This document shows positions 7,881-58,716 of a stretch of 64,000 bases of DNA, piece by piece. The position numbers and the translations under genes were made by a program. This stretch comes from Bryobacteraceae bacterium. GTDB lineage: Bacteria; Acidobacteriota; Terriglobia; Bryobacterales; Bryobacteraceae. The notes beneath the pieces are model-generated. The model worked only from the letters and a program-made list of their open reading frames with translations, made no database searches and had not been told where the DNA came from. Numbering within the stretch: the stretch's first letter is position 1; each line of letters opens with the position of its first letter. The stretch is from positions 814,251 through 878,250 of the forward strand of contig JBBCIQ010000004.1 in assembly GCA_037190045.1 (NCBI GenBank), in the 5' to 3' direction.

Positions 7881-9086
7881 TCAGGCAGCCTTGATGGCAC
7901 TGGCATTCTTTTCAATTTTTGCGATTGCTTCTGCTATCTGTTCCATTCCCCGGCGTGTATCCAGCATCATGGTTTGCGTGAACCAGACAGCTTGTGAACA
8001 TAGCTTGTTGTTTACAGGGCAGGTCTCGAGTGACATGGGACCATAGCCGGAAGAGCAGGGAATTCCTTCAGCGCGAAGTGCCTTGATGAACTGGTCACGA
8101 CTTAATGCTCCGTCATAGCGAAACATATAAAGATGCCAAGCATTACGTGTACATCCACCGTATAGTTCCTGGGGGGAAATTCCGGGAATTTTGGTCAGCA
8201 TGGAAGAAAGATAGAGCGCATTGACACTGCGCAGTCGAGCCTGTTCTTCGACGCGTGCCATCTGGGCGAGTAGCAGTGCAGCCTGGAACTCTGTCAGGCG
8301 ACCGTTCATTCCTCTGCCCTGGTAGTTGAAATCCCCACCTGCTTTTCTGCCGCGTCCGTTGTTGTGGAATGCATAGCACTTCTCGATGAACTCTTCGTTA
8401 TTGGAGAGAATCGCGCCACCTTCGCCGGAGTTCAGATTCTTCGATGCCTGAAAGCTGAAACAACCTGCAAGCCCATAAGTCCCTACCTGTCTTTCCTTCC
8501 ACTGTCCAAGATGAGCCTGACAGGCATCTTCAATGACAGGGATGTTTCGCTTCTTCGCGATGCTCAGGATGGTATCCAGATCTGCACTGGCTCCGCCCAG
8601 ATGAACGGGCATGATCGCTTTGGTGCGCGGAGTAATGGCGGTTTCAATCTTTGCTGCATCAATCTGGAAAGTTTCCAGATCAGAATCAACATACACCGGT
8701 TTGGCCCGGTGCAGTTCCACTGCGTTGACTGTCGCGATGAAAGTATAAGGCGGAATGATTACTTCATCTCCCGGTCCGATACCCAGTGCTCCAAGAACAG
8801 TGATGAGTGCGCTGGTGCCGCTTGCCGTCGTCAGGCAATACTTCGCTTGTGTGAAACGTGCGTATTCCTCTTCAAACTGGTTGACCAGAGCTCCATTGCC
8901 TCGTCCCCAGCGCCCGCTTTTCAGGACAGAAACAATTGCTTTTTCCTCGGTCTCATCCTGTACTGGCCAGCTGGGCCACTTCTCTTTTCTGACCGGTTCG
9001 CCGCCTAGCAGGGCAGGACTGGCGCTCACTGCAAATGCAGCACCAGCTAGCAGATTTCGTCGCGTCAACCCGGAGCTTGTCATCAT
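7881..9086 (-). CDS. DegT/DnrJ/EryC1/StrS-family PLP aminotransferase carrying a twin-arginine signal
   Basis: N-terminus MMTSSGLTRRNLLAGAAFAVSASPALLG (Tat-like). DegT blocks TSGTSALITVLGALGIGPGDEVIIPPYTFIAT and FSFQASKNLNSGEGG (PLP lysine). The ORF track starts at 9143, and the internal ATGs at 9086/9083 fit the signal peptide better. Confidence 0.85.
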   Translation of the reverse strand: MMTSSGLTRRNLLAGAAFAVSASPALLGGEPVRKEKWPSWPVQDETEEKAIVSVLKSGRWGRGNGALVNQFEEEYARFTQAKYCLTTASGTSALITVLGALGIGPGDEVIIPPYTFIATVNAVELHRAKPVYVDSDLETFQIDAAKIETAITPRTKAIMPVHLGGASADLDTILSIAKKRNIPVIEDACQAHLGQWKERQVGTYGLAGCFSFQASKNLNSGEGGAILSNNEEFIEKCYAFHNNGRGRKAGGDFNYQGRGMNGRLTEFQAALLLAQMARVEEQARLRSVNALYLSSMLTKIPGISPQELYGGCTRNAWHLYMFRYDGALSRDQFIKALRAEGIPCSSGYGPMSLETCPVNNKLCSQAVWFTQTMMLDTRRGMEQIAEAIAKIEKNASAIKAA

Positions 9087-9093
9087 GGAATGA

Positions 9094-9756
9094 ATGTTAC
9101 TCCAGAATGAGATCGTCAGTTGCCGGAAATGTCCGCGTCTCATTGCCCATTGTCAGGAAATCGCGAAAGTAAAGCGTCGTGCATACCGCGATCAAGAATA
9201 CTGGGGAAAGCCTGTGCCGGGATTTGGAGATCCGGATGCGGAGTTGCTCATTGTCGGACTGGCTCCCGGCGCACATGGAGCAAACCGGACAGGGCGCATG
9301 TTTACGGGAGACCGTTCCGGAGAATATCTTCATCGTGCACTCTATGAAACAGGATTCGCCAATCAGCCCACCAGCATCTCCCGCGATGATGGGCTGGAGT
9401 TACTCAACTGCTACATCACTGCGCCCGTGCATTGTGCACCTCCTGACAACAAGCCCACGCGGGAAGAGATTGCTACGTGTATCGATTATCTGCGCCGGGA
9501 GATCCCTCTATTGAAGAATCTTCGGGTAGTTGTGGTGCTGGGCAGGATTGCACTGGATGCTTATCGTACGGTGCAACAGCTGCCAAGGTTGGATTTTGGT
9601 CATGGTCTGGTCCACGACCAGCTCAATCCGCCCGTGATCTGCAGTTATCATCCCAGCCAGCAGAATACGCAGACGGGACGCCTCACGGCGGAAATGCTCA
9701 GGAATGTTTTTGAACTAGCCAGTCAGCGGATAACACAGAAAAAACACGCGCTTTAG
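9094..9756 (+). CDS. Uracil-DNA glycosylase, family 5 (UdgB-like, Fe-S)
   Basis: CRKCPRL cysteine cluster, GLAPGAHGANRTGRMFTGD, and HPSQQNTQTGRLT near the C-terminus. This matches the UdgB pattern as I remember it. Confidence 0.85.
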   Translation: MLLQNEIVSCRKCPRLIAHCQEIAKVKRRAYRDQEYWGKPVPGFGDPDAELLIVGLAPGAHGANRTGRMFTGDRSGEYLHRALYETGFANQPTSISRDDGLELLNCYITAPVHCAPPDNKPTREEIATCIDYLRREIPLLKNLRVVVVLGRIALDAYRTVQQLPRLDFGHGLVHDQLNPPVICSYHPSQQNTQTGRLTAEMLRNVFELASQRITQKKHAL

Positions 9757-9768
9757 CTATACCTGCCT

Positions 9769-11043
9769 TCAGTTCGATTCTTTCAGGTGTGGTGGCTTCA
9801 GGATCCATGCCACTACAGCTCCTGCCAGGGCGATCCCCGCCAGTGTTGTATAAACTTCCTGGTAGCCAGCTGCCATCTGGCCGGATTCCTTGGCCCGGTC
9901 CATAATGCCAGCGAAATACCCGGGGACGACAAATCCACAGACTCCCCAGGCAGAAAAGATGATGCCGTAGTTGGCCCCAACATGCTTAGGCCCGAAGTAA
10001 TCTGCTGTGAACGATGGCATAAGCGCCAGATATCCCCCATAGCTGAAGGCGGCAATACAGAGCCCGATCAGCAGGGAGTTAAAGCTGTCTATGTTCCTCA
10101 GGAAGACCATGCAGGCAATAATTGATCCGGCACACATCCCCATGACAGCGATTTTCCGGCCGTAACGATCAGACACACTTCCCCAACCCAGCCGCCCTAA
10201 GCCGTTGAAGATACTCATCACTCCTAATGCTGTTCCAGCAGTGAAAAGAGTAGATTGTGCGGCGCTGCTTTTCAGGAGCGGCGAGGCTTCTGCAATTGCT
10301 GTCAGACCAACGGATGTTCCCAGAAAGTAAACAACCCACAACGCGTAGAATTGCCAGGTCCGGAGCATGGCCTGTGCTGGGAACTCTTCCCGTGTGATCT
10401 GGTTCTGTGACGGCGTCCAGTTGGCTGGTTTCCATCCAGTTGGAGGAACACGGTAAAGCTGTGCTGAACCGATAACGCCCACATAAAAAATTGCCGCCAG
10501 AATCAGAAAAGTGCGTGGAATAGTTGCGCCGAACTGAGCTGGATCATTCCCCACCAGTGATTCGATCAGTGGGCCAAATACCAGCGGACCAATCCCGAAT
10601 CCCATGACAGCCAGACCTACAATCATGCCCCTCTTGTCAGGAAACCATTTGATACACATCGCAATGGGTGTGACGTAGGCAAAGCCGACACCCACTCCGG
10701 CGACCAGTCCATAACCGATGATGAGTCCTGTTAATGTGTGTCCGAAGAAAGAAGCCAGCAGACAACCTGTGCCAAGCAGGAAACCTCCCACACTGGCAAC
10801 GATACGTGGGCCCTTACGGTCTTGCCAGAAGCCTGCCACGATCATCCCCGCTGCAAATGCGAGGATCGAATAACGGTAAGGAGCCACTGTTTCTGCATTG
10901 GACCAGCCGTGCAGTTCAGCAAGGGGATTTCGAAAAATGGACCAGGAATAAATAATTCCCAGCAGAATCTGCATGAAAACTGCACTGGCAGCATACACCG
11001 TTCGGGAGTGATGGCTGGCTGCTGCTACGGGGCTGGAGCTCAT
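9769..11043 (-). CDS. MFS transporter, oxalate/formate antiporter (OFA) family
   Basis: About 12 TM helices, N-terminal YSWSIF block and WQDRKGPR loop typical of OFA-type MFS proteins. Confidence 0.85.
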   Translation of the reverse strand: MSSSPVAAASHHSRTVYAASAVFMQILLGIIYSWSIFRNPLAELHGWSNAETVAPYRYSILAFAAGMIVAGFWQDRKGPRIVASVGGFLLGTGCLLASFFGHTLTGLIIGYGLVAGVGVGFAYVTPIAMCIKWFPDKRGMIVGLAVMGFGIGPLVFGPLIESLVGNDPAQFGATIPRTFLILAAIFYVGVIGSAQLYRVPPTGWKPANWTPSQNQITREEFPAQAMLRTWQFYALWVVYFLGTSVGLTAIAEASPLLKSSAAQSTLFTAGTALGVMSIFNGLGRLGWGSVSDRYGRKIAVMGMCAGSIIACMVFLRNIDSFNSLLIGLCIAAFSYGGYLALMPSFTADYFGPKHVGANYGIIFSAWGVCGFVVPGYFAGIMDRAKESGQMAAGYQEVYTTLAGIALAGAVVAWILKPPHLKESN

Positions 11044-11085
11044 CGGGATATTGTAAGCTGCCCCTTCTGCGGAAAGATACTGAGG

Positions 11086-12150
11086 TCAGCCGCGAGTGAT
11101 TTCCTGCCCATACGGACGCGGAAATCGCTGGAATGGCATTCGGAAAAGCCGGGGAAAAGACGAACTCATGCGGGCAATCACCTCAGCCAGCCCCACAGTG
11201 ACAGAAAGCAACGGCTGGTCGTCCACCGTCAACGGAAGACCGAATCGATCACGCATTTTCTGATCCAGTCCGCGCAGCAGGGCAGAGCCTCCAGTCAGCA
11301 TGATTCCGGTCTCCACCAGATCTGCGCTGAGTTCTGGTGGGACTTCCTCAAGAGAACTGTGGACAGCATTGAGAATCTTTTCCACTACTGGATCAATCGC
11401 CTGCTGAATTTCAATATCCGTCAGTTCTGCTTCATGGGGGATTCCCTGGATCAGGCAGCGCCCTTTAAACCTGCCATGGGTGGGACGGAGCGGAGGAATG
11501 GCAGTTCCCAGCTCGATCTTAATCTGCTCTGCGGTCTGCTCCCCTACCAGGACCTGATGTTGATGCTTGACATGATCAATAATGGCATCACTCATCTCAT
11601 CTCCGGCTACGGGAACGGTAAGAGAATGGACAATCTGTCCCATGGAAATCAGGGAGATTCCGGTGATGCCCGCACCGATATCCACAATCATGCGGCCTCG
11701 AGGTTCATCAATGGGAAGCCCTGCACCCCGTGCAGCTACCAGTGCCTGATCAATAAGAATTACTTCGGATGCGCCTGCCTTACGGAGGGATTCCGAGATC
11801 GCCATGCTCTCCACTTCTGTCATCTCTCCTGGCATAGCGACAGCAGCCCGCATGGGGCCTAGTCTCCAGGAGCCACACGCCTGAGCGAGAAAGCGCTTCA
11901 GCATGGCATCGCATAGATTGAGATCGGTAATCATTCCGTCCCGGATCGGACGGACCGTTTTGAGTCGTTGGGGGGTACGTCCCCAGGCACTGCGGGCTTC
12001 CTTGCCGACGGAAACTACGCGTCCCGATGCCTGCCCGATAGTGACCAGAGAAGGTTCATTGACAGCAATCCCGCGCTCTGTTGCGTAGACAACAGTATTC
12101 GCCGTGCCAAGATCCACGCCGACATCGGAAGTGAAGATAGAAGCTGCCAC
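11086..12150 (-). CDS. MreB-family actin-like ATPase, divergent orphan paralogue
   Basis: GTG start. VGVDLGTANTVVY (phosphate 1), NEPSLV, WGRTPQRLKTVRPIRDGMITD, MIVDIGAGITGISLIS (phosphate 2), IMLTGGSALLRGL (adenosine). No mreC/mreD follows. It has an extra F/R/P-rich C-terminal tail. Confidence 0.8.
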   Translation of the reverse strand: MAASIFTSDVGVDLGTANTVVYATERGIAVNEPSLVTIGQASGRVVSVGKEARSAWGRTPQRLKTVRPIRDGMITDLNLCDAMLKRFLAQACGSWRLGPMRAAVAMPGEMTEVESMAISESLRKAGASEVILIDQALVAARGAGLPIDEPRGRMIVDIGAGITGISLISMGQIVHSLTVPVAGDEMSDAIIDHVKHQHQVLVGEQTAEQIKIELGTAIPPLRPTHGRFKGRCLIQGIPHEAELTDIEIQQAIDPVVEKILNAVHSSLEEVPPELSADLVETGIMLTGGSALLRGLDQKMRDRFGLPLTVDDQPLLSVTVGLAEVIARMSSSFPRLFRMPFQRFPRPYGQEITRG

Positions 12151-12171
12151 TCTCGCAAGAAAACCCCTCTG

Positions 12172-12576
12172 TTAGCTGGCTGCCTTTGCGGATTCCGGCT
12201 GATAGACCACTTCCAGAATTTGCAGGCGGCGGATCCCTTTTGGGACCTTCCATTCAATCACATCTCCGGCACGGTAGCCCAGCAGGGCAGTTCCGATGGG
12301 AGCGAGGATGGAAACCCCGTTTTCCGGCATGTTCAGCCGGGGGAAGACCAGTTTGTAGTTTTTCTTTTCCCCGGAATCCAGATCTTCCAACCGTACTTCA
12401 GAGTTCATCGTCACGATATCGCTGGGAATTTCCCTCGGGTCAACGATTTCCGCATTATCCAGTTCCTGCTCCAGAGTCTCCAGGTACTGGTCATCAGGAG
12501 ATGAGGAATCCTTTCGGCGTTCGACAAGCTGATACAGCTGGTCGAAATCGGATTGGGTAATGATAATGTTTTTCAT
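12172..12576 (-). CDS. rnk: Rnk (nucleoside diphosphate kinase regulator), GreA/GreB-family secondary-channel protein
   Basis: From ATG 12576 the product is MKNIIITQSDFDQL...DIVTMNSEVRLEDLDSGE...LVFP...VSILAPIGTALLGYRAGDVIEW...LEVVYQPE, colinear with E. coli Rnk as I recall it. SD GGAAGG lies at 12582-12587. The longer ORF (to 12804) is rejected. Confidence 0.85.
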   Translation of the reverse strand: MKNIIITQSDFDQLYQLVERRKDSSSPDDQYLETLEQELDNAEIVDPREIPSDIVTMNSEVRLEDLDSGEKKNYKLVFPRLNMPENGVSILAPIGTALLGYRAGDVIEWKVPKGIRRLQILEVVYQPESAKAAS

Positions 12577-12598
12577 CGTTGCCTTCCTCTTGCGAAGG

Positions 12599-12613
12599 GC
12601 AATTGAAGTGCCA
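12599..12613 (-). promoter_or_regulatory. Sigma-54 (-24/-12) promoter directed at rnk
   Basis: The minus strand reads CTGGCACTTCAATTGCCC, which is TGGCAC-N5-TTGC. All 10 fixed consensus positions match, with correct GG-to-GC spacing (plus-strand cc 12611-12612, gc 12599-12600). The predicted start is near 12587. Confidence 0.7.
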
Positions 12614-12656
12614 GTCGGTAAATGGCGTGTTTTGAAGGGAAAAAGACCGATGAGCA

Positions 12657-12700
12657 GGCACAAGTGCCTCTTATCGGGCACTTGTGCCCGATAAGAGGCA
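12657..12700. promoter_or_regulatory. Two GGCAC-NN-GTGCC dyads 20 bp apart, the second embedded in a 36-bp palindrome; candidate enhancer (UAS) for a sigma-54 activator
   Basis: GGCACAAGTGCC at 12657-12668 and GGCACTTGTGCC at 12677-12688. 17-nt perfect inverted arms at 12665-12681 and 12684-12700. The dyad centres lie about 75 and 95 nt upstream of the predicted rnk start. Confidence 0.45.
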
Positions 12701-12777
12701 AAAATCTCTCTCTTCATTCTGTTGGAATGACATGCTCTGGCCTGGTATGGGATCGAAGTATACTCTGACCAGAAAGA

Positions 12778-13845
12778 GTGAATAAGGAGATTCCGATCCG
12801 GCAAATGTCATTTCAATCGAAAGTTTCCGTTGGGATTTCCCTCCTGATCTGCCTGATTGTTGCTCTTGGTGACGGATTCAGGCTATTTTTCCTCCCGCAA
12901 GTTTATTTCCTTCCTGTGGTATGGACCGCTGTTTGCGAAGGATGGAAGGCAGGCGGTGGTATCGGAGCTGGATGCGGTGTTGCATTACTGTTCTTTTCCA
13001 CTCCGGAAGACAGCGAAACGCGAGTGATATTTGCGGCAGTTCTTGTGGGAACAGGAATCCTGGCAGGAATTTTGAGTGATATCCAGCGCCGGAAGAGCCG
13101 GGAATACCAGTTGCGCTGTGAGGAAATGAGTGCTGTTCACGATAAGGTGCAGGCGAGTTTTGAAGGAATGAAGAGAAGTGAGCGGTTATCTGCTCTCGGG
13201 CAACTGTCCGCAGGACTGGCCCATGAGATCCGGAATCCCCTGGCGAGTATTGCCGGAGCCACTGCGATTCTGGAAAGAAACAAGGATCTGAACGCGCAGG
13301 ATTCACGTTGTCTGGAGATCATCAAGAAGGAATGCTACCGGCTGGATGGCCTGCTGACCAACTTCCTGAATTTTGCGCGTCCCCGGCCTCCCCAGTTTCA
13401 GGCAGTGGATCTGAATATGGTGCTGGATGTGGTGCTGGATCTGGCAACACATGGTGTCCGGGGGAAACAGATTCATCTGGTCAAGCACATCCATTCTCCG
13501 GTGCCGCTGGTGGAGTGTGATCCGGAACAGCTGGAACAGGTACTTCTGAATCTGATGATCAATGCAGTGGAAGCAAGTCCGGAAGGAGAAACCGTTGTTC
13601 TTTCTGCAAGGCAGGATGGTACGAAGATTCTGATCCAGGTGGCAGATCATGGTCATGGCGTGCAGCCTGCCCATGTTGATCGGCTTTTTGATCCTTTTTT
13701 TACAACGAAAGAACATGGAACCGGATTGGGACTACCCGTAGCTCATCAGATTGTGGCTCAGATGGGCGGACGACTTTCGGCGGCCAGTAATCCAGGACAG
13801 GGAATGACATTTTCTGTGATGCTCCCCACGGCGGGAATGGAATGA
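12778..13845 (+). CDS. Sensor histidine kinase, membrane-embedded input (about 4 TM, no periplasmic domain)
   Basis: H-box LAHEIRNPLASI, N-box LLNLMINAVEA, G1 DHGHGV, G2 GTGLGL. GTG 12778 is the track start. ATG 12805 (after AAGGAG at 12784-12789) is an alternative. Confidence 0.85.
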   Translation: MNKEIPIRQMSFQSKVSVGISLLICLIVALGDGFRLFFLPQVYFLPVVWTAVCEGWKAGGGIGAGCGVALLFFSTPEDSETRVIFAAVLVGTGILAGILSDIQRRKSREYQLRCEEMSAVHDKVQASFEGMKRSERLSALGQLSAGLAHEIRNPLASIAGATAILERNKDLNAQDSRCLEIIKKECYRLDGLLTNFLNFARPRPPQFQAVDLNMVLDVVLDLATHGVRGKQIHLVKHIHSPVPLVECDPEQLEQVLLNLMINAVEASPEGETVVLSARQDGTKILIQVADHGHGVQPAHVDRLFDPFFTTKEHGTGLGLPVAHQIVAQMGGRLSAASNPGQGMTFSVMLPTAGME

Positions 13846-15263
13846 ATCCCTCTTCCCACATCCTGATTGTGGATGATGACGAAAATCTCCGGTGGGTGCT
13901 ACAGACACAGGTAGAGCAGATGGGCTATGCCGTTCAGGCAGTCGGCAACGGGGATGATGCCTTGGCTTCCATTGAGAAATCCATGCCGGCGCTTGTTCTT
14001 TCCGATCTGAAGATGCCCGGACTTTCGGGAATGGAACTTCTGCAGAAGATCCGAGCCGGATGGCCGGAAATTCCGGTCATCATCATGACGGCCTTCGGGA
14101 CCATCCAGAGTGCGGTCGGTGCCATGCGCGTGGGCGCTTATGATTACCTCTCCAAGCCGATTGATTATGAAGAGCTACTGTTGGTGATTCGCAGGGCTCT
14201 CGAACATTTCCGGCTTCTGGAAGAGGTGCAGATTCTGCGTACCAATCTGGATCGTAAATACGGATTCGACAATATCATTGGGCAATCAGAGAGTCTTCTT
14301 TCTGTGCTGGATATGGCATCCCGCGCGGCGCGCAGCAGTTCCACTGTCCTGATTCATGCAGAGACGGGAGCAGGAAAAGAGTTGCTGGCGCGAGCGATCC
14401 ATTTCAATAGTCCTCGTAAGGAAAAGCCCTTCGTTACGATCAACTGCGGAGCCATTCCTCGCGAATTGCTGGAGTCTGAACTGTTCGGGCACGTCAAGGG
14501 ATCCTTCACCGGAGCGGTCTCCCATAAAATCGGGAAAGTGGAGATGGCCAACCAGGGGACATTATTTCTGGATGAGATCGGGGAGATGCCAGCGGAACTG
14601 CAGGTAAAGCTGCTTCGCCTGATTCAGCACGGGGAGCTGGAAAAAGTGGGCTCAGCGTCGCCCGCTATCGTGGATGTCCGCTTTGTGGCGGCCACTCATC
14701 GAAACCTGCTGGCGATGGTGGAGGATGGAACATTCCGTGAAGACCTTTATTACCGTCTTGCCGTGATCCCCCTGCGCCTTCCTCCATTGCGGGAGCGGCG
14801 GGAGGATATTCCTGAGTTGCTTCAGTATTTCTTTCTCAAGGCGCGCGAGCGCCAGGGGCGGCCGGAACTGGTGCTTCCTCCTGCTCTTGTGCCGTATTTC
14901 CAGAACTACCGCTGGCCGGGGAATATCCGTGAACTGGAAAATGTAGTGGAAAGAATCGTCGTCCTTTCAAGAGGCGATGAGATTACAGTTGCTGATTTGC
15001 CGGAATACCTTCGCAGAGAGCAGCCGATTTCAGATGTTTTGCAATTTGAGATGCCCATGCAGGGGATCAGTCTGGAATCTGTCGAAAAAGAACTTCTGGT
15101 GCGTGCGTTGGAGAAGTTTAATGGAAATCAGACCCATGCTGCCCGGTATCTGGACATTAGCAGAAAAGCGCTGATTTACCGGATGGAGAAGCACGGAATG
15201 AAGCGCCGTTCCGTAGAAACGGATGATCCCGAAAATTCCCCGGAAACTATTGAAGATAGTTAA
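13842..15263 (+). CDS. Sigma-54-dependent response regulator (NtrC family)
   Basis: Receiver domain (LVLSDLKMPG), AAA+ Walker A ETGAGKE, ESELFGH, GSFTGA loop, C-terminal Fis-type HTH AARYLDISRKALIYRM. The ATGA overlaps the kinase stop. Confidence 0.92.
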   Translation: MNPSSHILIVDDDENLRWVLQTQVEQMGYAVQAVGNGDDALASIEKSMPALVLSDLKMPGLSGMELLQKIRAGWPEIPVIIMTAFGTIQSAVGAMRVGAYDYLSKPIDYEELLLVIRRALEHFRLLEEVQILRTNLDRKYGFDNIIGQSESLLSVLDMASRAARSSSTVLIHAETGAGKELLARAIHFNSPRKEKPFVTINCGAIPRELLESELFGHVKGSFTGAVSHKIGKVEMANQGTLFLDEIGEMPAELQVKLLRLIQHGELEKVGSASPAIVDVRFVAATHRNLLAMVEDGTFREDLYYRLAVIPLRLPPLRERREDIPELLQYFFLKARERQGRPELVLPPALVPYFQNYRWPGNIRELENVVERIVVLSRGDEITVADLPEYLRREQPISDVLQFEMPMQGISLESVEKELLVRALEKFNGNQTHAARYLDISRKALIYRMEKHGMKRRSVETDDPENSPETIEDS

Positions 15264-15291
15264 ATTAACTTAACATTAGGCTGTCTGCAAT

Positions 15292-15307
15292 TGGCCCTGT
15301 TCCTGCT
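15292..15307 (+). promoter_or_regulatory. Candidate sigma-54 promoter upstream of the USP gene
   Basis: TGGCCC-TGTTC-CTGCT matches 8 of 10 fixed positions, with correct GG (15293-15294) to GC (15305-15306) spacing. It lies 29 nt after the activator stop and 44 nt before GTG 15351. Confidence 0.4.
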
Positions 15308-15350
15308 TAATCCCTGAGTTCAATTACTGAAAAAGGTTCAGGGCCCGCAC

Positions 15351-16259
15351 GTGTTCGAAGTTACTCAGATTCTGTTTCCCACTGACCTCTCCATCATGTG
15401 TGGAGCGTTCGCCTGGCAGGTAACTGCTCTGGCTACTCGCCTGAATGCAAACCTGACTCTGCTGCATGTTCAGGATGAAGAGCAGGAAAAGACAAGCAAA
15501 CCGCGCGTTTCTGGTCAATTTTCTGGATTCACCAACCTGATTGGTGAACAGATGGAGCCGCATCGGGTCAGCCGGAAAATCATCAGCGGGGGGCTTGCAG
15601 AAAATATCATCAGTGAGGCCGATTCAGAGTGTGCCGACCTGATCATGATCCCCGCGCAGGAGAAGCGCGGATGGCGGCGTTTTCTGGAAGCGCCCATGAT
15701 TGAACAGACGTTACGGCAATCCCGCTGTGCTGTCTGGACTGCATCAACCAATCGTGCAGCGGCGTGTGCCCAGTTCCGGAATATCGTTTGTGCAGTGGAC
15801 CTGCATGCAGACAGTCCGCGTGTGCTGGCTTCTGCCATCCATCTGGCAAATCGCCTGGATGCAACACTTTCAGTGGTTCACGTTCTTCCGGAAGCAGATG
15901 AAAGTCTACTTCATCTTGCTGCAATGCATGATCTGCCACTAACATTTTCCGACGAAGAGATCCATGGGGAGATTCGACGGATGCAGCCAGATTCGCAAAA
16001 TTCCCCGGAAATTCTAATTGAACATGGCGATGTTTCTTCCGGAATCAGACGTGCCCTACAGCGTCAGAATGCGGATCTTCTGGTGATCGGCCCCGGCAGA
16101 TTCTCCGAAATTCCTGGTGGGCTGGGCGCGCATGTAGTACCTCTGGTCCGGACTGCTTCCTGCCCCGTTCTTGTATTGAGAAAACCGGAATCTGTGGGTG
16201 GATTCTGTCTCAAAAAAGGCAGTAATGTCCGAAATGAGGCGGTTGAACCGGTAGCCTGA
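15351..16259 (+). CDS. Universal stress protein, tandem UspA domains
   Basis: Two Usp-like halves (ILFPTDLS...LLHV and VCAVDLH...VVHV, ending CPVLVL). GTG start. Confidence 0.8.
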   Translation: MFEVTQILFPTDLSIMCGAFAWQVTALATRLNANLTLLHVQDEEQEKTSKPRVSGQFSGFTNLIGEQMEPHRVSRKIISGGLAENIISEADSECADLIMIPAQEKRGWRRFLEAPMIEQTLRQSRCAVWTASTNRAAACAQFRNIVCAVDLHADSPRVLASAIHLANRLDATLSVVHVLPEADESLLHLAAMHDLPLTFSDEEIHGEIRRMQPDSQNSPEILIEHGDVSSGIRRALQRQNADLLVIGPGRFSEIPGGLGAHVVPLVRTASCPVLVLRKPESVGGFCLKKGSNVRNEAVEPVA

Positions 16260-16274
16260 GTTCGGAAAACCCAT

Positions 16275-17276
16275 CTAACGGGAGGGCCGGGCAGGACGAA
16301 CTGGAGCCGGACAGCAGTCTGCCGGACAAAAATCCGGGTTGGGGCCGATGGTTCCCACTACCCGTTGCTGTTCTCCAGAGAGCCGTTCCAGCACCAGTTC
16401 CCGGATCATGGCGATGAACCGCTGGTCTGAACTGGATGTTGCCACCCGGATCATTTTCATCCCCAGTTCCTGGCAGAGGTTGTGAGCCTCTGTGTCGAGA
16501 TCATAGAGGACTTCCATATGATCGGAGATGAAACCGATGGGGACAATGATCACATCTCCGACTTCCTGTTCCCGAAGTGTACGCAGATGGTCCAGAATAT
16601 CTGGCTCCAGCCAGGGCACCTGGGGAGGGCCGCTCCGGCTCTGCCACACCACATCATATTGAGTGAGCTGACAGGCTTCAGCGACGATCCGGGATGCCTC
16701 CTGCATCTGTACCTCATACCGGCTTCCCTGTGCCATCGAAAGCGGAATGGAATGAGCAGTAAAGATGACCCGGGCTAACGGCAGGTCCTTGAGCGCTGCT
16801 TTGACATGATCAATCACCGGATCGAGGAATCCCGGATGGTTGAAATAAACTCTCAGCTTCAAGACTTCCAGCTCTTCAAATCCGGCGTCTTTTTGAGCCT
16901 GCGCCAGGTTTTCGAGATATTGACGGCATCCGGAGTAGCTGGAAAATGCGGAAGTGACAAAGACAAAGGCACGCCGGATTCCATCGGTTTTCATTTGCTG
17001 AAAGGTGTCGGCAAGAAAGGGATGCCAGTTCCGGTTTCCCCAATACACAGGAAGGTCAGGCCCCTGCTGCTGCAGAAGCGTGGTCAGCTTCTGCAGAATC
17101 TCCTTGTTCTGGTCATTGATGGGGCTGCGTCCCCCGAAGTGCAGATAGTGCTCTGCCACTTCCTCCAGCCGTTCGCGGGGAATGCCGCGTCCGCGGGTGA
17201 CGTTTTCGAGAAATGGCATAACTTCATCCGGCCCGTTAGGTCCGCCGAAAGAAAGCAGGAGAATTGCATCAGCCAT
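16275..17276 (-). CDS. hemH: Ferrochelatase
   Basis: ILLLSFGGP, FTAHSIPLS and FISDHMEVLYDLD blocks. SD AAGGA lies 8 nt upstream. Confidence 0.92.
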   Translation of the reverse strand: MADAILLLSFGGPNGPDEVMPFLENVTRGRGIPRERLEEVAEHYLHFGGRSPINDQNKEILQKLTTLLQQQGPDLPVYWGNRNWHPFLADTFQQMKTDGIRRAFVFVTSAFSSYSGCRQYLENLAQAQKDAGFEELEVLKLRVYFNHPGFLDPVIDHVKAALKDLPLARVIFTAHSIPLSMAQGSRYEVQMQEASRIVAEACQLTQYDVVWQSRSGPPQVPWLEPDILDHLRTLREQEVGDVIIVPIGFISDHMEVLYDLDTEAHNLCQELGMKMIRVATSSSDQRFIAMIRELVLERLSGEQQRVVGTIGPNPDFCPADCCPAPVRPARPSR

Positions 17277-24147: not shown

Positions 24148-25464
24148 TCAGGCCAGCCCCATCCGTTCCAGCTTGCGATACAGGGTTTTCCGCTCGATGC
24201 CGAGAATCTTGGCTGCCCGGCTCTTGTTATTATTTGCTGCAGCCATGACGCGGCGGATCTGCTCTGCTTCCGTATCGGCCAGGGTGTCCCCCGCATCACC
24301 GGACTGGGTGGTACGCAGAGTTTCCCGCACTGCCGCCTCGTCAATCTTTCCCTGCGTTGCCAGGATCACCAGTCGCTCCATGGTGTGTTGCAACTGGCGC
24401 ACATTGCCCGGCCAGGTATAGTCTTCAAGTGTGCGCAGACCGGAATCCATCAATCGTGCGGACTGGTTGTAACGCTCGTTATAACGGCGCAGAAAGAACT
24501 GAGCCAGCAGTCCGCTGTCGCCCCGGCGTTCCCGAAGCGGCGGCAACTGGATGGGGACGACATTCAGACGGAACCAGAGATCTTCCCGAAATTTTTCATC
24601 ATCTACCAGCTTCCTCATGTCGCGGTTGGTTGCTGCCACCACTCGCACATCCACTGGTTTGGAACGGGATGCACCGACGGGTCGAACCTCTTTTTCCTGC
24701 AGGAAACGCAGCAGCTTGAGCTGAAATCCGCTGTCGATGTCGCCGATCTCGTCCAGGAAGACGGTTCCACGATGTGCCGATTCAAAGACACCCATTCTGT
24801 CGCGGTCCGCGCCGGTGTAGCTGCCACGCAGGGCTCCGAATAGTTCACTTTCCAACAAACTGGTGGGGATGGCTCCACAATCCACTGGAACAAAAGGTTG
24901 GTTCGTCCGCAGAGAGTTCTGGTGAATCATGCGCGCGATGATCTCTTTTCCGGTTCCGGTTTCTCCTTCGATCAGGACGGTTGCATCGGTGGGTGCCACG
25001 CGGGAGATGGTCTTGTAGATCTCCACCATCTGTGCCGATGCGCCGATCAGTTCTGTTTCCGGAAGATCGAGATCGTCCTCTTCTTCCTCATCGTCTGGTT
25101 GAAGGGATGCTTCAGCCTTGCGGACCAGTTCCAGCAGGGCATTCAGTTCGAAGGGCTTGGCGATGTAGTCAAATGCACCGTTGCGGGTTGCTGCCATGAC
25201 GGTTTCCATGGAGCCGCGTCCGGTCATCAGAATGACGGCACAGTTCGGATTCGTCTGTCGGGCAGCATGCAGGACATCCAGTCCGGTTTTGTCATCGATA
25301 TAGATATCAGTGACTACCAGCGGATAAGCGGTTTCCGACAGCTTTTTCAGCGCGGCTTTCGTGGAAGAGACAGCATCCACCGGATAACCTTCCATTTCCA
25401 GAAGGGTGGTGACTGTTGAACGAACGTTCGGATCATCTTCCACGATCAGCAGTTGCGGCTTCAT
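24148..25464 (-). CDS. Sigma-54-dependent response regulator (NtrC family)
   Basis: Receiver domain (LVVTDIYIDD), GETGTGKE, ESELFGA, GSYTGA loop, HTH AAKILGIERKTLYRKL. Confidence 0.92.
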   Translation of the reverse strand: MKPQLLIVEDDPNVRSTVTTLLEMEGYPVDAVSSTKAALKKLSETAYPLVVTDIYIDDKTGLDVLHAARQTNPNCAVILMTGRGSMETVMAATRNGAFDYIAKPFELNALLELVRKAEASLQPDDEEEEDDLDLPETELIGASAQMVEIYKTISRVAPTDATVLIEGETGTGKEIIARMIHQNSLRTNQPFVPVDCGAIPTSLLESELFGALRGSYTGADRDRMGVFESAHRGTVFLDEIGDIDSGFQLKLLRFLQEKEVRPVGASRSKPVDVRVVAATNRDMRKLVDDEKFREDLWFRLNVVPIQLPPLRERRGDSGLLAQFFLRRYNERYNQSARLMDSGLRTLEDYTWPGNVRQLQHTMERLVILATQGKIDEAAVRETLRTTQSGDAGDTLADTEAEQIRRVMAAANNNKSRAAKILGIERKTLYRKLERMGLA

Positions 25465-25472
25465 GACGATAT

Positions 25473-27227
25473 TCAGACTTCCCTTGCAACGGTATCAGAC
25501 TGCACCGGCAATACTATTGTGAAACAGGAACCTTCTCCCAGCTTGCTGGCGACTTCCAGCTTTCCTCCGTGCTGGCTCACGATCTCCCGGACGATGGACA
25601 GGCCGATCCCGGTTCCCTGAATGCCGGAGTCCTCCGCATGGCGTGTCCGGAAGAAACGATTGCCCAGTTTGCTCAGATCCTTTTGTGCGATCCCCATTCC
25701 CTGATCCTTCACCGAAAAGCGGTATGTTCCTTTAGCCTGAGACGCAGACAACTGGATTTCAGTTTCCTCCGGAGAGTATTTCACTGCATTGGTCAACAGA
25801 TTATATAGCGCAAACTCCATCAGTTCCCGGTCCCCCCGAAGGGTGATCTCATCTCCGGAATCTGTTAGCAGTGTCTGCTGTTTCTGTTCCAGCAAGGCGG
25901 CTACCCGGAGAGAACACGTCCTGAGAACGTCACTCATGGAAAAGTCAGCCTGCTTCAATTCGATCTGCCCGGAAGAGAGGCGCTCGACATCCAGAAAGGA
26001 CTGGATCATCTGCGCCAGCCGTTTTGATTCCGAATGGATCATATCGGCGATCTGTTTCTGTTTGTCTGCCGGAAGACTGTAGCGGGTCATCAGTTCACTG
26101 GATCCCTGGATGGCAGTCAGGGGACTCCGCATTTCGTGCGTCACCCAGTGAATCGCCTGCTGATATCGGGAGCGGTCTGTCTCCGCACGCGCGAGGTTCA
26201 TGCGCGTCGCACGATACTGAAGTGTTGCTGCGGTTAATCCTGGTAACCATGCAGCAAGGGCGATTCCGCTTCCGGGAACAATCAGATCATTTCGGAACAG
26301 GACGAAAGGCAGAGCATGTGCCAGCAGGATCACTGCCGCTCCTGCTGCATAACCTGCCCAGCGGATGGCAGCGACTGTCGAGGCAGCAATCAGCAGCATA
26401 ATTGCCAGAACAGATGTCAGGGAAAGATCAGTACGGAATCGGCCTTCACGAAAAGTTTCATATAACTGAGCATGGATCTCCACACCCGGCATCATGATTC
26501 CCAGCGGCGTCATGAGTCTATCGCGTGCTGCCGTCAGGGGAGTTGCTCCAATAAAGATCGTCTTGCCTTCCAGCTTTGCCAGATCCAGTTGAGACGCGGA
26601 CATGCGGGGCAGCTCTTCCGAAAAAGCGATGCGCACATCCGTAGCCGGGATCATGCGTCCATTCCAGTTCACTGTGTTTCCGGATTCCAGAGGAATGGTT
26701 CCGGGGGAGAGGGCTTCCAGTGCCATCGCCCACCGTCGAGTTCTGCCGGCAACCTTGGACAAGGAGATCTCACGACACACCGGATCAGGATTTGCATGGA
26801 CGTGACCGAGAGCGCTGGCTGATTGGCTGAATGCGGGGATGGGGTCCTGCCAGCCGGAACCATCCTGTGCGATATCGGTAGCGAGAACCAGGTGATTGAT
26901 CTGCGCCATGGCCTGTGCCAGTCTGCGGTCTTCCTGTGCATCACCTGCGTCAGCCAGTGTGAAGTCGATAGCAACTGCGGATGTCCGGATGGTGGCGATC
27001 TGTTCCAGTGTTTGTGCGAGCACAGAACGAAGCGCGCGCATGCCTCCATTCTTCTGCAGTGTTGTTTCATCAATTGCGATCACCACTGCCTGAGGTTCTG
27101 TGCGGACAATCGGGAAGAGGCGGCACATCCAGTCATAGAGGGCATTGTCGAGGTTGGTGGAAACAGGCATCCAGGAAATGAGAATGGACGCCAGCAATGC
27201 CGCAGCAGGATACAGCCAGTACTTCAT
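25473..27227 (-). CDS. CHASE2-domain sensor histidine kinase
   Basis: N-terminal TM followed by a CHASE2-like extracytoplasmic region and three TM helices. H-box THEMRSPLTAIQG, N-box YNLLTNAVKY, G-boxes DQGMGI and GTGIGL. Confidence 0.85.
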   Translation of the reverse strand: MKYWLYPAAALLASILISWMPVSTNLDNALYDWMCRLFPIVRTEPQAVVIAIDETTLQKNGGMRALRSVLAQTLEQIATIRTSAVAIDFTLADAGDAQEDRRLAQAMAQINHLVLATDIAQDGSGWQDPIPAFSQSASALGHVHANPDPVCREISLSKVAGRTRRWAMALEALSPGTIPLESGNTVNWNGRMIPATDVRIAFSEELPRMSASQLDLAKLEGKTIFIGATPLTAARDRLMTPLGIMMPGVEIHAQLYETFREGRFRTDLSLTSVLAIMLLIAASTVAAIRWAGYAAGAAVILLAHALPFVLFRNDLIVPGSGIALAAWLPGLTAATLQYRATRMNLARAETDRSRYQQAIHWVTHEMRSPLTAIQGSSELMTRYSLPADKQKQIADMIHSESKRLAQMIQSFLDVERLSSGQIELKQADFSMSDVLRTCSLRVAALLEQKQQTLLTDSGDEITLRGDRELMEFALYNLLTNAVKYSPEETEIQLSASQAKGTYRFSVKDQGMGIAQKDLSKLGNRFFRTRHAEDSGIQGTGIGLSIVREIVSQHGGKLEVASKLGEGSCFTIVLPVQSDTVAREV

Positions 27228-56274: not shown

Positions 56275-58716
56275 ATGTCCGAACAGCAGTACGACCATCT
56301 TTCCATTGAGCCCAAGTGGCAGTCCGTCTGGGATTCTTCTCCAGATCTATACAAGGCGTCTGTAGAAGACAGCCGTCCCAAGTATTTCGTTGTCGAAATG
56401 CTTCCGTATCCCAGTGGAAAGCTCCATATGGGACACGTCCGGAATTACTCCATTGGAGATACGCTGGCCCGTTACATGTGGATGCGAGGATATAACGTTC
56501 TGCATCCCATGGGGTGGGACGCATTCGGACTTCCTGCGGAAAATGCTGCGCTGAAAAGCGGACGTCCTCCCCGTGACTGGACGGTGTCGAACATCGCCAC
56601 CATGAAGGGGCAGCTGAAACGTCTGGGCTTCAGCTACGACTGGGATCGCGAAATCTCCACCTGCGAGCCGGACTACTACCGGTGGAACCAGTGGTTCTTT
56701 CTCCGCATGTATGAGAAAGGCCTGGCATACCGCAAAAACTCGCGCGTGAACTGGTGCACAATCTGTGCCACAGTGCTGGCTAATGAACAAGTAGTGAACG
56801 GCTGCTGCTGGAGGCATGAGACTACACCTGTCATCCAGAAGGAGATCGAACAGTGGTTCTTCCGGATTACGCAATATGCGGATGAACTGGTGGATGGCCT
56901 GAAGGATCTGGACCCAGGCTGGCCGGAACGTGTTCGCGCCATGCAGGAGAACTGGATTGGCCGCAGTGATGGCACGGAAGTGGATTTCCGGCTGGAAGGC
57001 ACAAATGAGCCGATCCGGGTCTTTACTACCCGCGTCGATACGATTTTTGGGGTTTCCTGTGTCATTCTGGCACCGGAGCATCCGCTGACCGCTGGACTAA
57101 CGGCTGCAGAGCAGCAGGCGGAGCTGAAACGGATTCTGGAAGACCAGTCCCGTAAAGATCCGGCTGAGATCGAGAAGGAAGGCTTCTTCACAGGTCACTA
57201 CGCGATGAACCCATACAGCGGCGAAAAGGTTCCGGTATGGGTGGGTAACTTTGTTCTGGCCAACTATGGAACAGGTGCCATCATGGCTGTGCCTGCCCAT
57301 GATGAACGGGATTTTGAATTCTGTAGCAAGTACGGAATACCCATTGTTCCGGTGATCCGTCCGGTGGATGGTGTTCTTCCGGAAGTGGCAACGGAAGCAT
57401 TCACGGAATATGGAATCGCAGAAAAGGCGGGTCAGTTTTCCGGACTCCCTTCTGCGGAAGCGCGCGAAAAGATGTCGCACTTTGCGGAACAGAATGATTT
57501 CGGCAAAGCGACCATTACTTATCGGCTGAGAGACTGGGGCGTTTCCCGTCAGCGTTATTGGGGAACTCCGATTCCCATCATTCATTGTGAAAAATGCGGT
57601 GTCGTTCCGGTTCCTGATGATCAGCTGCCTGTGGTTCTGCCGGACAGTGTGAACATCACGGGAGAGGGTCGATCTCCGCTGGAATCTGTTCCGGAATTCA
57701 TCAATGTTGCCTGTCCACGATGCGGATCCGCTGCCCGGCGTGAATCCGACACGATGGATACTTTTGTGGATTCATCGTGGTACTTCTATCGCTATTGCGA
57801 TCCGAAGAATGAGCAGCGTCCTTTTGATCCTGCGGTTGCCAAGCACTGGTTCCCCATGGATCAGTACATCGGTGGAATCACCCATGCAATTCTGCATCTG
57901 TTGTATTCACGCTACTGGACCAAAGTGATGCGGGACATTGGGTTGATCGAAAACAATGAGCCCGCCGCAAACCTGTTCACGCAGGGAATGGTGCTGGGTA
58001 CTGATGGAACAGCCATGTCCAAGTCAAAAGGGAATGTGGTGGATCCTGACCTGATGGTCCAGAAGTACGGTGCTGATACCTGCCGTCTGTTTACCTTGTT
58101 TGCGGCCCCCCCGGATCGCGACATGGAGTGGAATGAATCTTCTGTGGAAGGACAGTTCCGTTTTCTGAATCGTGTCTATCGGTTCATTACCCGCAATATC
58201 AATGTAGAGCGGGAAGGTACTTCACAGGGTGGACGTCAGGCCCTGCGCAAACTTCATCAGACCATTGGAAAAGTGACCGGCGATTTTGATAATCGTTGGC
58301 ACTTCAATACATCCATTGCTGCGCTGATGGAACTGCTGAATGAGCTGACATCATTAGAGGAAAAGATCCCCGGTGATATTACCCAGCAGGTCATCTCGGC
58401 CTATGTGAAGTTGCTGGCTCCGTTTGCACCGTTCATCTCACAGGAACTGTGGGAACTGATGAGCGGCTCCGGTCAGATTCTGCGGCAAGACTGGCCTGTA
58501 ACTGATCCTGCACTGGCTGCTGAAGATGAACTGGAAGTTCCGGTCCAGATCAATGGAAAGGTCCGCTCGCGTGTGGTGGTTCCGATTGGTACATCCCGTG
58601 AGGACCTGGAAAAAGCTGCATTGTCAGAAGAGAAGATTCGTGCGGCACTGGAAGGGAAACAGGTGGCCAAGCTCATCGTAGTTCCCGGAAAACTCGTCAA
58701 TATCGTCGCGAAATAA
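56275..58716 (+). CDS. leuS: Leucine--tRNA ligase
   Basis: HIGH-type motif PYPSGKLHMGHVRNY, CP1 editing domain, KMSKS-type motif AMSKSKGN, 813 aa. Confidence 0.97.
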   Translation: MSEQQYDHLSIEPKWQSVWDSSPDLYKASVEDSRPKYFVVEMLPYPSGKLHMGHVRNYSIGDTLARYMWMRGYNVLHPMGWDAFGLPAENAALKSGRPPRDWTVSNIATMKGQLKRLGFSYDWDREISTCEPDYYRWNQWFFLRMYEKGLAYRKNSRVNWCTICATVLANEQVVNGCCWRHETTPVIQKEIEQWFFRITQYADELVDGLKDLDPGWPERVRAMQENWIGRSDGTEVDFRLEGTNEPIRVFTTRVDTIFGVSCVILAPEHPLTAGLTAAEQQAELKRILEDQSRKDPAEIEKEGFFTGHYAMNPYSGEKVPVWVGNFVLANYGTGAIMAVPAHDERDFEFCSKYGIPIVPVIRPVDGVLPEVATEAFTEYGIAEKAGQFSGLPSAEAREKMSHFAEQNDFGKATITYRLRDWGVSRQRYWGTPIPIIHCEKCGVVPVPDDQLPVVLPDSVNITGEGRSPLESVPEFINVACPRCGSAARRESDTMDTFVDSSWYFYRYCDPKNEQRPFDPAVAKHWFPMDQYIGGITHAILHLLYSRYWTKVMRDIGLIENNEPAANLFTQGMVLGTDGTAMSKSKGNVVDPDLMVQKYGADTCRLFTLFAAPPDRDMEWNESSVEGQFRFLNRVYRFITRNINVEREGTSQGGRQALRKLHQTIGKVTGDFDNRWHFNTSIAALMELLNELTSLEEKIPGDITQQVISAYVKLLAPFAPFISQELWELMSGSGQILRQDWPVTDPALAAEDELEVPVQINGKVRSRVVVPIGTSREDLEKAALSEEKIRAALEGKQVAKLIVVPGKLVNIVAK

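Follow-up and report, generated by a model that had tools for sequence, protein, structure and literature searches.

A stretch of 64,000 nucleotides (nt) from a Bryobacteraceae genome (GenBank assembly GCA_037190045.1, contig JBBCIQ010000004.1, positions 814,251 to 878,250; hereafter the window, 64 kb) carries, immediately upstream of the gene rnk, a sigma-54 promoter that is almost certainly real, judging by its match to the consensus and its conservation in related bacteria. The surrounding locus can quite probably be read as a two-component, sigma-54-dependent switch over rnk, a paralogue of the actin-like gene mreB, a major facilitator superfamily (MFS) transporter gene and a universal stress protein (USP) gene, operated by a histidine kinase and an NtrC-family activator that are encoded divergently from rnk (Table 1). 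An earlier note on this DNA had proposed that the promoter is functional and is served by the neighbouring activator, a proposal that phylogenetic footprinting now strongly supports; that note did not mention that the MreB paralogue has an altered ATP site or that the USP gene has a predicted sigma-54 promoter of its own.

The promoter lies on the minus strand and consists of a −24 element, TGGCAC (12613–12608), a 5-nt spacer and a −12 element, TTGC (12602–12599), together reading CTGGCACTTCAATTGCCC (within the rnk upstream region ...cgaCTGGCACttcaaTTGCCcttcgcaagaggaaggcaacgATG, minus strand). All 10 fixed consensus positions are matched, 22 nt before the rnk ATG (12576). The earlier report of an exact sigma-54 consensus facing rnk was correct, and this is the only copy of TGGCAC-N5-TTGC on either strand of the window. 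Shuffled windows held an average of 0.09 exact matches, with 8 of 100 shuffles holding at least one, so a single exact match is merely suggestive for the window as a whole; it carries more weight for a gap of 200–230 nt in the right orientation. In a simple −24/−12 weight scan of both strands (maximum score 14.4), a ranking that the earlier note had suggested for the whole genome, the element came first among all sites in the window; the next-best sites (at 56770, 49220, 26323 and 26407) all fall within coding regions, and we took them for chance matches.

To the extent that the earlier note judged chance unlikely from the match alone, the shuffles do not bear it out; the judgement stands through conservation. 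Relatives were gathered by exact look-ups of the closest MreB-like proteins (54–73% identical) and by searching GTDB representative genomes with an alignment of Rnk sequences, and a tblastn survey yielded 88 rnk loci: 38 acidobacterial loci (35 unique), defined by an Rnk at least 52% identical to that of the window, and 50 control loci, with Rnk at most 53% identical and from other phyla except for the Acidobacteriota-labelled L040, L046 and L057. The GTDB scan supplied 30 of the 38 acidobacterial loci, almost all of them from Bryobacterales, Solibacteraceae and other Acidobacteriota metagenome-assembled genomes (MAGs), and the remaining 8 were the window's own contig and metagenome contigs; the closest GTDB representatives to the window were Bryobacterales and Solibacteraceae MAGs. 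Far from being missing from orthologous intergenic regions, which the earlier note had named as grounds for doubt, a −24/−12 element was present upstream of rnk on the correct strand in all 38 acidobacterial loci, scoring at least 11 of 14.4 in 35 of them, at a distance from the start codon of 52–62 nt in most loci and 21–23 nt in the window's clade. Among the 50 control loci, the best score within 350 nt was almost always below 9, at scattered positions (the exceptions with a sigma-54-like element being L044 and L046, plus L085 and L076), and by tblastn neither the orthologous kinase/activator pair nor an MreB-like gene adjoined rnk in any of them. Two of the exceptions (L044:420–436 and L046:3146–3162; one labelled Vicinamibacterales, the other Bifidobacteriaceae, possibly a binning error) carry GGGCAC-N5-GTGCA at a 55-nt distance from rnk, with the kinase/activator pair not adjacent, and from these sigma-54 control of rnk may extend beyond the Bryobacterales.

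Aligning all loci at the promoter revealed a 16-base-pair (bp) upstream site with the consensus TGTGCGTTTTCAGGCA. In 30 of the 38 acidobacterial loci, a site with at most three mismatches to it ends 50–52 nt upstream of the −24 element, and a second, TGGGCAnTAGCGGCCA-like site, also conserved across loci, lies 4 bp further upstream; the resulting 20-bp phasing places the two centres near −85 and −105, within the approximately 80–150 bp from the start that is characteristic of sigma-54 upstream sites. The 50 control loci of the survey lacked both the upstream activator site and the promoter. In a five-way alignment of diverged intergenic regions, the invariant columns fell on the activator sites, the −24/−12 element and a block near the kinase start. 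The window's predicted proximal site retains the outer TG..CG.....AGGCA, columns that are invariant in this alignment, and its distal site barely differs from those of L025 and L028. The two sites of the window are also perfect reverse complements of each other, forming a palindrome with 17-nt arms (12665–12681 and 12684–12700); relatives carry two dissimilar sites, and the exact symmetry is thus best taken as a recent feature of the window's lineage. A terminator was ruled out for this palindrome, which stands between divergent genes and coincides with two conserved activator sites. A second, 12-nt inverted repeat (GGCACAAGTGCC / GGCACTTGTGCC) overlaps it (region 12657–12700), and a possible third, degenerate site (12645..12660) is a weak candidate, showing no conservation in relatives in the five-way alignment.

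The regulators themselves are conserved alongside these sites. Hydropathy of the kinase showed four hydrophobic segments in residues 1–94 with short connecting loops and no space for a periplasmic domain, and the activator combines Response_reg, Sigma54_activat (9.9e-69), AAA_lid_14 and HTH_8 Pfam domains with an intact GSFTGA loop at 14499, all as the earlier note had described in outline. The divergent gap that it placed between rnk and the kinase gene is also there, but not at the given size of 201 nt: because the gene caller and ortholog N-termini agree, the kinase probably starts at ATG 12805 rather than at the alternative GTG 12778, and the gap is then 228 nt. The best named families of the kinase were AtoS and ZraS, both under the NCBIfam cut-offs, and the activator fell below those for NtrC (461 versus 559), AtoC (459 versus 714) and ZraR (389 versus 760); with every equivalog cut-off missed, this is an unnamed NtrC-family system and not an ortholog of a named one. 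Orthologous kinase and activator genes (activators 72–88% identical) are divergent from rnk in 30 of the 35 unique acidobacterial loci, and the helix–turn–helix (HTH) recognition sequence of the activator, GNQTHAA(K/R)YLDISRKALIYRMEKHG, is almost invariant across orthologs, the window included, which fits a single conserved DNA specificity. The −24/−12 element, the paired sites at fixed spacing and the divergent regulator genes all persist in orthologous loci whose proteins share no more than 52–84% identity. On this comparative evidence, the neighbouring activator (13842..15263) very probably controls the rnk promoter.

For the kinase/activator operon, the weight scan found no sigma-54 site in the window. 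Five diverged loci share a conserved block, CAG[A/C]GTA[T/C]AC (read on the rnk strand), located 35–45 nt ahead of the kinase start, and we infer that the candidate −10 hexamer TATACT acts as the promoter of this operon. The window also holds a second two-component pair on the minus strand (24148–27227), comprising a 584-amino-acid membrane kinase (25473..27227) followed by a 438-amino-acid NtrC-type activator with a GSYTGA loop (24148..25464); the sigma-54-like motifs at 26323 and 26407 lie inside the coding sequence of that kinase and are probably chance occurrences.

In Escherichia coli, Rnk binds RNA polymerase's secondary channel, in competition with Gre and DksA factors; to our knowledge, its physiological role is still unclear. 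The window Rnk passes the NCBIfam equivalog NF004396 (123.5 against a cut-off of 109) and matches the E. coli Rnk structure 3bmb (E 1.4e-23, residues 4–130), and its orthologs are 60–84% identical to it. Four loci are solitary rnk paralogues, which keep the same upstream site and promoter with no adjacent activator and sit in MAGs that also hold a kinase/activator-linked locus; action in trans therefore occurs. Several Bryobacterales have two or three rnk copies per genome, each with a sigma-54 promoter and upstream site (L013/L022/L032 in MAG SJ154, L014/L027 in UW1SPNA014, L018/L033 in SJ149, and L019, L020, L025 and L028), and in some loci a second rnk lies just past the activator gene.

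Downstream of rnk, the MreB-like gene and the MFS gene follow on the same strand after gaps of 21 nt and 42 nt. These gaps, the GTG start of the MreB-like gene and the identities of rnk, kinase and activator agree with the earlier calls on both sequence and Pfam/NCBIfam evidence, as does the MFS assignment at superfamily level; the label of an OFA-type (oxalate/formate) transporter does not survive, the protein scoring 202.9 against 374.85 for TIGR00890 and 158.9 against 335 for TIGR04259 and passing NF049980, the SfMCT L-lactate transporter equivalog (372 versus 320), from which its substrate is predicted. As the earlier note had seen, neither junction has a terminator-like hairpin, and we found at both no terminator-like site, no hairpin more stable than those of shuffled controls and no sigma-70-like site, in a scan that recognises only sigma-70-type consensus sites. 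The same scan returned no sigma-70-like site in the rnk/kinase gap, and an Rfam scan of 9000–16500 gave no credible match. From this arrangement, the three genes are probably carried on a single transcript. An MreB-like gene lies directly after rnk in 21 of the 27 kinase/activator-linked loci with enough downstream sequence and in none of the four solitary rnk paralogues, and on all six looked-up contigs of MreB clade members the gene was directly downstream of a kinase/activator-linked rnk. The MFS gene was found in the window's clade only (L001, L002 and L004), with other genes in its place in L003, L006 and L008. Conservation of the whole arrangement in Acidobacteriota, which the earlier note had proposed to test, therefore holds for rnk, the kinase/activator pair and, in those 21 loci, the MreB-like gene, and fails for the MFS gene; as far as these loci indicate, the conserved core of the unit is rnk plus the MreB-like gene, with the MFS gene lineage-specific.

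Along its entire length the MreB paralogue aligns with Caulobacter MreB (4czf, E 2e-81); it passes PRK13927 (362 versus 293) but fails TIGR00904 (341 versus 365.75). Its nucleotide-site motifs, LIDQA, DIGAGITG and LTGGSALL, amount to E140Q, G165A, T167I and G296S, and E140Q, G165A, T167I/V and G296S are common to all rnk-linked copies, many of which also have D162N. According to PMC6965359, canonical MreB uses Glu140 as its catalytic base, and hydrogen bonds to the triphosphate come from Gly165, Gly166, Thr167 and Gly295. The rnk-linked copies thus lack the canonical pair of Glu140 and Thr167 as well as the glycine-rich phosphate-2 loop. In a neighbour-joining tree, the 90 sequences with a GAG(I/V)T loop were monophyletic against 54 canonical MreBs, with 45% identity between the groups and 63% and 75% within them. 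Representatives of the canonical acidobacterial MreBs sit in mreB-mreC-mreD-pbp2-rodA operons, and at the loci looked up none of the rnk-linked copies adjoins mreC or mreD. The clade accounts for 67 of the 120 nearest database matches and is thus common in metagenomes. Canonical MreB of the Gram-negative type binds membranes through an N-terminal amphipathic helix. The rnk-linked proteins have an N-terminus 4–6 residues shorter than that of canonical acidobacterial MreB, and where the canonical protein ends in ...LLRKV they carry a clade-specific C-terminal motif, L..L....(D/E)WRRFG in Bryobacterales and SxPRLFRxPF in the window's clade (window 11086–11170; orthologs in L008–L035), which could be a partner- or membrane-binding tail.

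Whether these changes impair ATP hydrolysis is, on sequence grounds, an evenly balanced question. Speaking against such impairment, E140Q has no diagnostic value by itself: of the 120 best matches, 31 pair Gln with the catalytic Thr (P0077, P0092, P0108, P0119 and 27 others, acidobacterial MreBs with LVEQA that keep DIGGGTTD), and P0119 lies in an mreBCD-pbp2-rodA operon, which rules out E140Q by itself as a mark of inactivity. Gln is also the state of eukaryotic actin at this position (Q137). The case for impaired hydrolysis consequently depends mainly on T167I/V, G165A and, in relatives, D162N.

Beyond rnk, a second predicted sigma-54 promoter precedes the tandem-USP gene that follows the activator gene. 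The orthologous position carries TTGGCAAcgttcTTGCT in L003 and TTGGCAGcaataTTGCT in L006 and L007, and L003 and L006 likewise have a USP gene after the activator gene. A weak TGCCCGGTATCTGGAC at 15141–15156 was rejected as its upstream site, since it lies within the conserved HTH-coding sequence and its conservation is uninformative. Bryobacterales relatives have more sigma-54 promoters around the locus, many with the same upstream site at 50–95 nt, before genes for HPF/S30AE-like (a weak Pfam match, 22.3 versus 23.7 bits), DksA/TraR zinc-finger (PF01258, 3e-12) and HEAT-repeat proteins, a conserved 172-amino-acid protein and tandem USPs; a DUF302-like gene is divergent from rnk in relatives, with the upstream site common to both. 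A TGTGCGTTTTCAGGCA-type site and a sigma-54 promoter precede HPF/S30AE-like and DksA/TraR genes in L009, L010, L015, L033, L035 and L038 (for example, L033:7756 minus, and L035:10414 minus and 10576 plus), and in L035 the two genes are divergent, with one site for both. Two classes of RNA-polymerase secondary-channel factor therefore appear, from these predicted promoters, to belong to one regulon. Secondary-channel factors together with a ribosome-hibernation-type factor and USPs read as a growth-arrest or stress programme, and from this gene content we tentatively suggest such a role for the module, at something short of an even chance.

In the proposed switch, the kinase/activator operon would be read from its own housekeeping-type promoter, and the membrane-embedded kinase would sense a signal in or at the membrane and phosphorylate the activator. 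The activator would then oligomerise on the two 16-bp sites, 20 bp apart and approximately 85 and 105 bp upstream of the start, and, at the expense of ATP, open the closed complex formed with sigma-54 at 12613..12599, giving a transcript with a leader of about 11 nt that would carry rnk, the MreB paralogue and, in the window's lineage, the lactate-type MFS gene; the promoter at 15292..15307 would drive the tandem-USP gene. Rnk would occupy the RNA-polymerase secondary channel, competing with Gre and DksA factors, while a hydrolysis-impaired, mreCD-independent MreB copy might alter or freeze cytoskeleton-guided growth or act together with Rnk, and the USP and, in relatives, the HPF-like and DksA/TraR-like proteins would complete the response. 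A stronger version, in which Rnk and the MreB paralogue form a direct functional pair within an acidobacterial growth-arrest regulon, strikes us as fairly unlikely; such a pair might tether, sequester or relocalise RNA polymerase or, alternatively, link the arrest of transcription to that of wall growth. A connection between MreB and RNA polymerase is mentioned in a passage of PMC12372405, citing Kruse et al. 2006.

Several observations weigh against the proposed switch. The window's proximal activator site has 6 mismatches, each of them internal, to the 16-position family consensus; rpoN (RpoN box) is not in the window, leaving sigma-54 dependence to rest on sequence and comparison; and we found no convincing activator site before the USP promoter. 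The GAGGGG that the earlier note saw before the MreB-like GTG is present at a long spacing of 13 nt, and the 6 of 27 linked loci with no MreB-like gene make that gene accessory to the unit. Both the signal and the physiological role have been deduced from gene content. Finally, with transcription predicted to start near 12587, the rnk leader of about 11 nt has its Shine–Dalgarno sequence (GAGGAAGG, 12589–12582) at the very 5′ end, which is unusual and which the earlier note had entered as a caveat. Because the short promoter-to-ATG distance of 21–23 nt is kept in three distinct sequences of the window's clade, this caveat does not count against the promoter. Predicted rnk leaders elsewhere are approximately 45 nt in most Bryobacterales and approximately 14 nt in L019, and in L026 (3597–3626) the rnk ATG lies 12 nt past the −12 GC, so that a sigma-54 transcript is predicted to be leaderless; by these predictions, the leader is shortened independently in other lineages. 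Most Bryobacterales rnk leaders (L011–L038; for example, L020:5936–5990 and L023:5941–5995) also contain a conserved GCAC-N4-7-GTGC stem-loop approximately 10–30 nt past the predicted start; the window's clade, with its leader of about 11 nt, does not have it. The stem is invariant and the loop variable in length, a pattern more in keeping with an RNA hairpin than with a site bound by protein.

Two rivals concern how rnk is controlled. Were the motif a chance match, with rnk read from an ordinary housekeeping promoter, the shuffled windows with an exact match and a predicted start inside the Shine–Dalgarno region would be easily accommodated; the element's presence in every acidobacterial locus together with an upstream site at fixed spacing, the lack of both in controls and the absence of a sigma-70-like site from the gap (sigma-70-type consensus scan) make this extremely improbable, the comparative data effectively refuting it. 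A real sigma-54 promoter could instead answer to another enhancer-binding protein (24148..25464 or one encoded elsewhere), the adjacency of 13842..15263 being merely historical. Acidobacteria carry many NtrC-type activators, a second kinase/activator pair is present in the window, and the solitary rnk paralogues attest to action in trans. Those paralogues occur in MAGs that also hold a linked locus, however, and an orthologous activator adjoining rnk in 30 of 35 unique loci, with an HTH helix near-invariant in parallel with the conserved upstream site, renders control from elsewhere distinctly unlikely.

Two others concern the genes downstream of rnk. The sigma-54 promoter might drive rnk alone, with the MreB-like and MFS genes read from their own, unrecognised promoters, as could be argued from the lack of MFS conservation outside the window's clade, from the linked loci with no MreB-like gene and from a promoter scan limited to sigma-70-type consensus sites in a phylum whose promoters are poorly known. 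Yet the short same-strand gaps, free of terminator-like sites, promoter-like sites and significant hairpins, and the restriction of the MreB-like gene to linked rnk copies (21 of 27 against 0 of 4 solitary copies, and six of six looked-up clade contigs) leave separate promoters unlikely. That the MreB-like gene is simply the housekeeping rod-shape MreB, its place in the operon having no special meaning, would accord with its Pfam MreB_Mbl and PRK13927 matches and its full-length alignment to Caulobacter MreB, but is very unlikely for a member of a separate monophyletic clade with clade-wide changes in ATP-contacting residues, which misses the longer canonical N-terminal segment and the TIGR00904 cut-off and was never found beside mreC or mreD.

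Table 1. Features of the rnk locus, with positions counted from the first nucleotide of the window, and motif changes in the rnk-linked MreB copies
Feature	Position	Strand	Details
MFS transporter gene	9769..11043	minus	424 amino acids; SfMCT-type (L-lactate/monocarboxylate); third gene of putative operon
MreB paralogue gene	11086..12150	minus	354 amino acids; GTG start; Pfam MreB_Mbl PF06723, 8.6e-108
rnk	12172..12576	minus	134 amino acids; Pfam Rnk_N and GreA_GreB
Sigma-54 promoter of rnk	12599..12613	minus	exact TGGCAC-N5-TTGC; top weight score; conserved upstream of rnk
Possible third, degenerate activator site	12645..12660	minus	TGCCTGCTCATCGGTC; read from sequence; 20-bp phasing
Predicted proximal activator site	12665..12680	minus	TGCCCGATAAGAGGCA; ends 51 nt upstream of TGGCAC; centre approximately −85
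Predicted distal activator site	12685..12700	minus	TGCCTCTTATCGGGCA; centre approximately −105; 20 bp from proximal site
Candidate −10 hexamer of kinase/activator operon	12759..12764	plus	TATACT; housekeeping-sigma type; predicted
Histidine kinase gene	12805..13845	plus	Pfam HisKA and HATPase_c; four N-terminal membrane helices
NtrC-family response regulator/sigma-54 activator gene	13842..15263	plus	Pfam REC, AAA+ and HTH_8
Predicted second sigma-54 promoter	15292..15307	plus	TGGCCC-N5-CTGCT; 43 nt before USP GTG; score 11.0 of 14.4
Tandem universal-stress-protein gene	15351..16259	plus	302 amino acids; Pfam Usp matched in two stretches
MreB motif, Caulobacter LIDEP			L(I/V)DQ(A/V) in rnk-linked copies; E140Q (Caulobacter numbering)
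MreB motif, Caulobacter DIGGGTTE			(D/N)(I/V)GAG(I/V)T(G/D) in rnk-linked copies; G165A, T167I/V, often D162N
MreB motif, Caulobacter LTGGGALL			LTGGSALL in rnk-linked copies; G296S

Together, these results place Rnk, more consistently than any other gene product, under a dedicated sigma-54 two-component system in an abundant group of soil bacteria, and so yield a testable hypothesis about its role. The MreB paralogue clade, with its fixed genomic partner, is a candidate regulatory or 'poison' actin; if the pairing of Rnk with this MreB were true, it would provide the first physiological role for Rnk and a genetic handle on the connection between MreB and RNA polymerase. We know of almost no characterised promoters in Acidobacteriota, and the consensus of promoter and upstream site, together with the exact distances between them, offers a way to predict the regulon across whole genomes of this phylum. 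The earlier note knew of no described system of this kind; our search of the literature available to us agrees, returning no paper that ties sigma-54 to Rnk or to an MreB paralogue, and none of relevance on sigma-54 regulons of Acidobacteria or on degenerate MreB paralogues in that group, although this is no proof of novelty.

Among known systems, ZraS/ZraR with zraP (E. coli envelope stress) and NtrB/NtrC with glnAp2 likewise pair a two-component kinase with an NtrC-family sigma-54 activator, and the ZraSR/zraP type of layout has a target divergent from the regulator operon and tandem sites approximately 80–110 bp upstream of a −24/−12 element. ZraS/AtoS and NtrC/AtoC were the best-scoring named families here, yet all equivalog cut-offs were missed; the kinase spans the membrane with four helices and lacks a periplasmic sensor domain, there is no sigma-54 site at the kinase operon, and the genes controlled encode Rnk, an MreB paralogue, an MFS transporter and a USP rather than a periplasmic chaperone (zraP) or glutamine synthetase (glnA). 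PilS/PilR with pilA also combines a membrane-embedded kinase with no periplasmic domain and an NtrC-family sigma-54 activator; PilS, however, has six membrane helices, against four here, and senses pilin, and we found no pilin or pilus gene. Mycobacterial DosRST offers a functional analogy only: its two-component induction of USPs and a ribosome-hibernation-type factor in growth arrest has a parallel in relatives of this locus, where the same upstream site serves genes for USP, HPF-like and DksA/TraR-like proteins, but DosR is of the LuxR type and works with a housekeeping sigma factor, DosS and DosT are haem sensors, and none is homologous to the regulators described here.

For the targets, E. 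coli Rnk (3bmb) has the same two-domain architecture and length as the window Rnk, but the acidobacterial proteins have a 3-residue insertion at the coiled-coil tip, and E. coli rnk is solitary, with no sigma-54 control reported as far as we know or could find, whereas rnk here is linked to sigma-54. Extra MreB copies with diverged roles are also known, as in Spiroplasma MreB3 and Bacillus subtilis Mbl and MreBH. MreB3 lacks the catalytic Glu and Thr (PMC12372405), where the clade described here has Gln and Ile/Val; in contrast to all three, this clade is separate and acidobacterial, is linked to rnk and a sigma-54 promoter and bears a C-terminal motif of its own. The regulatory logic is textbook NtrC-type, in a layout nearest to ZraSR/zraP. 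What is new is the set of genes under control and how this set is conserved: Rnk is the target that recurs throughout, usually partnered by a clade-specific MreB whose ATP site is altered, and in relatives genes of a growth-arrest type are co-regulated.

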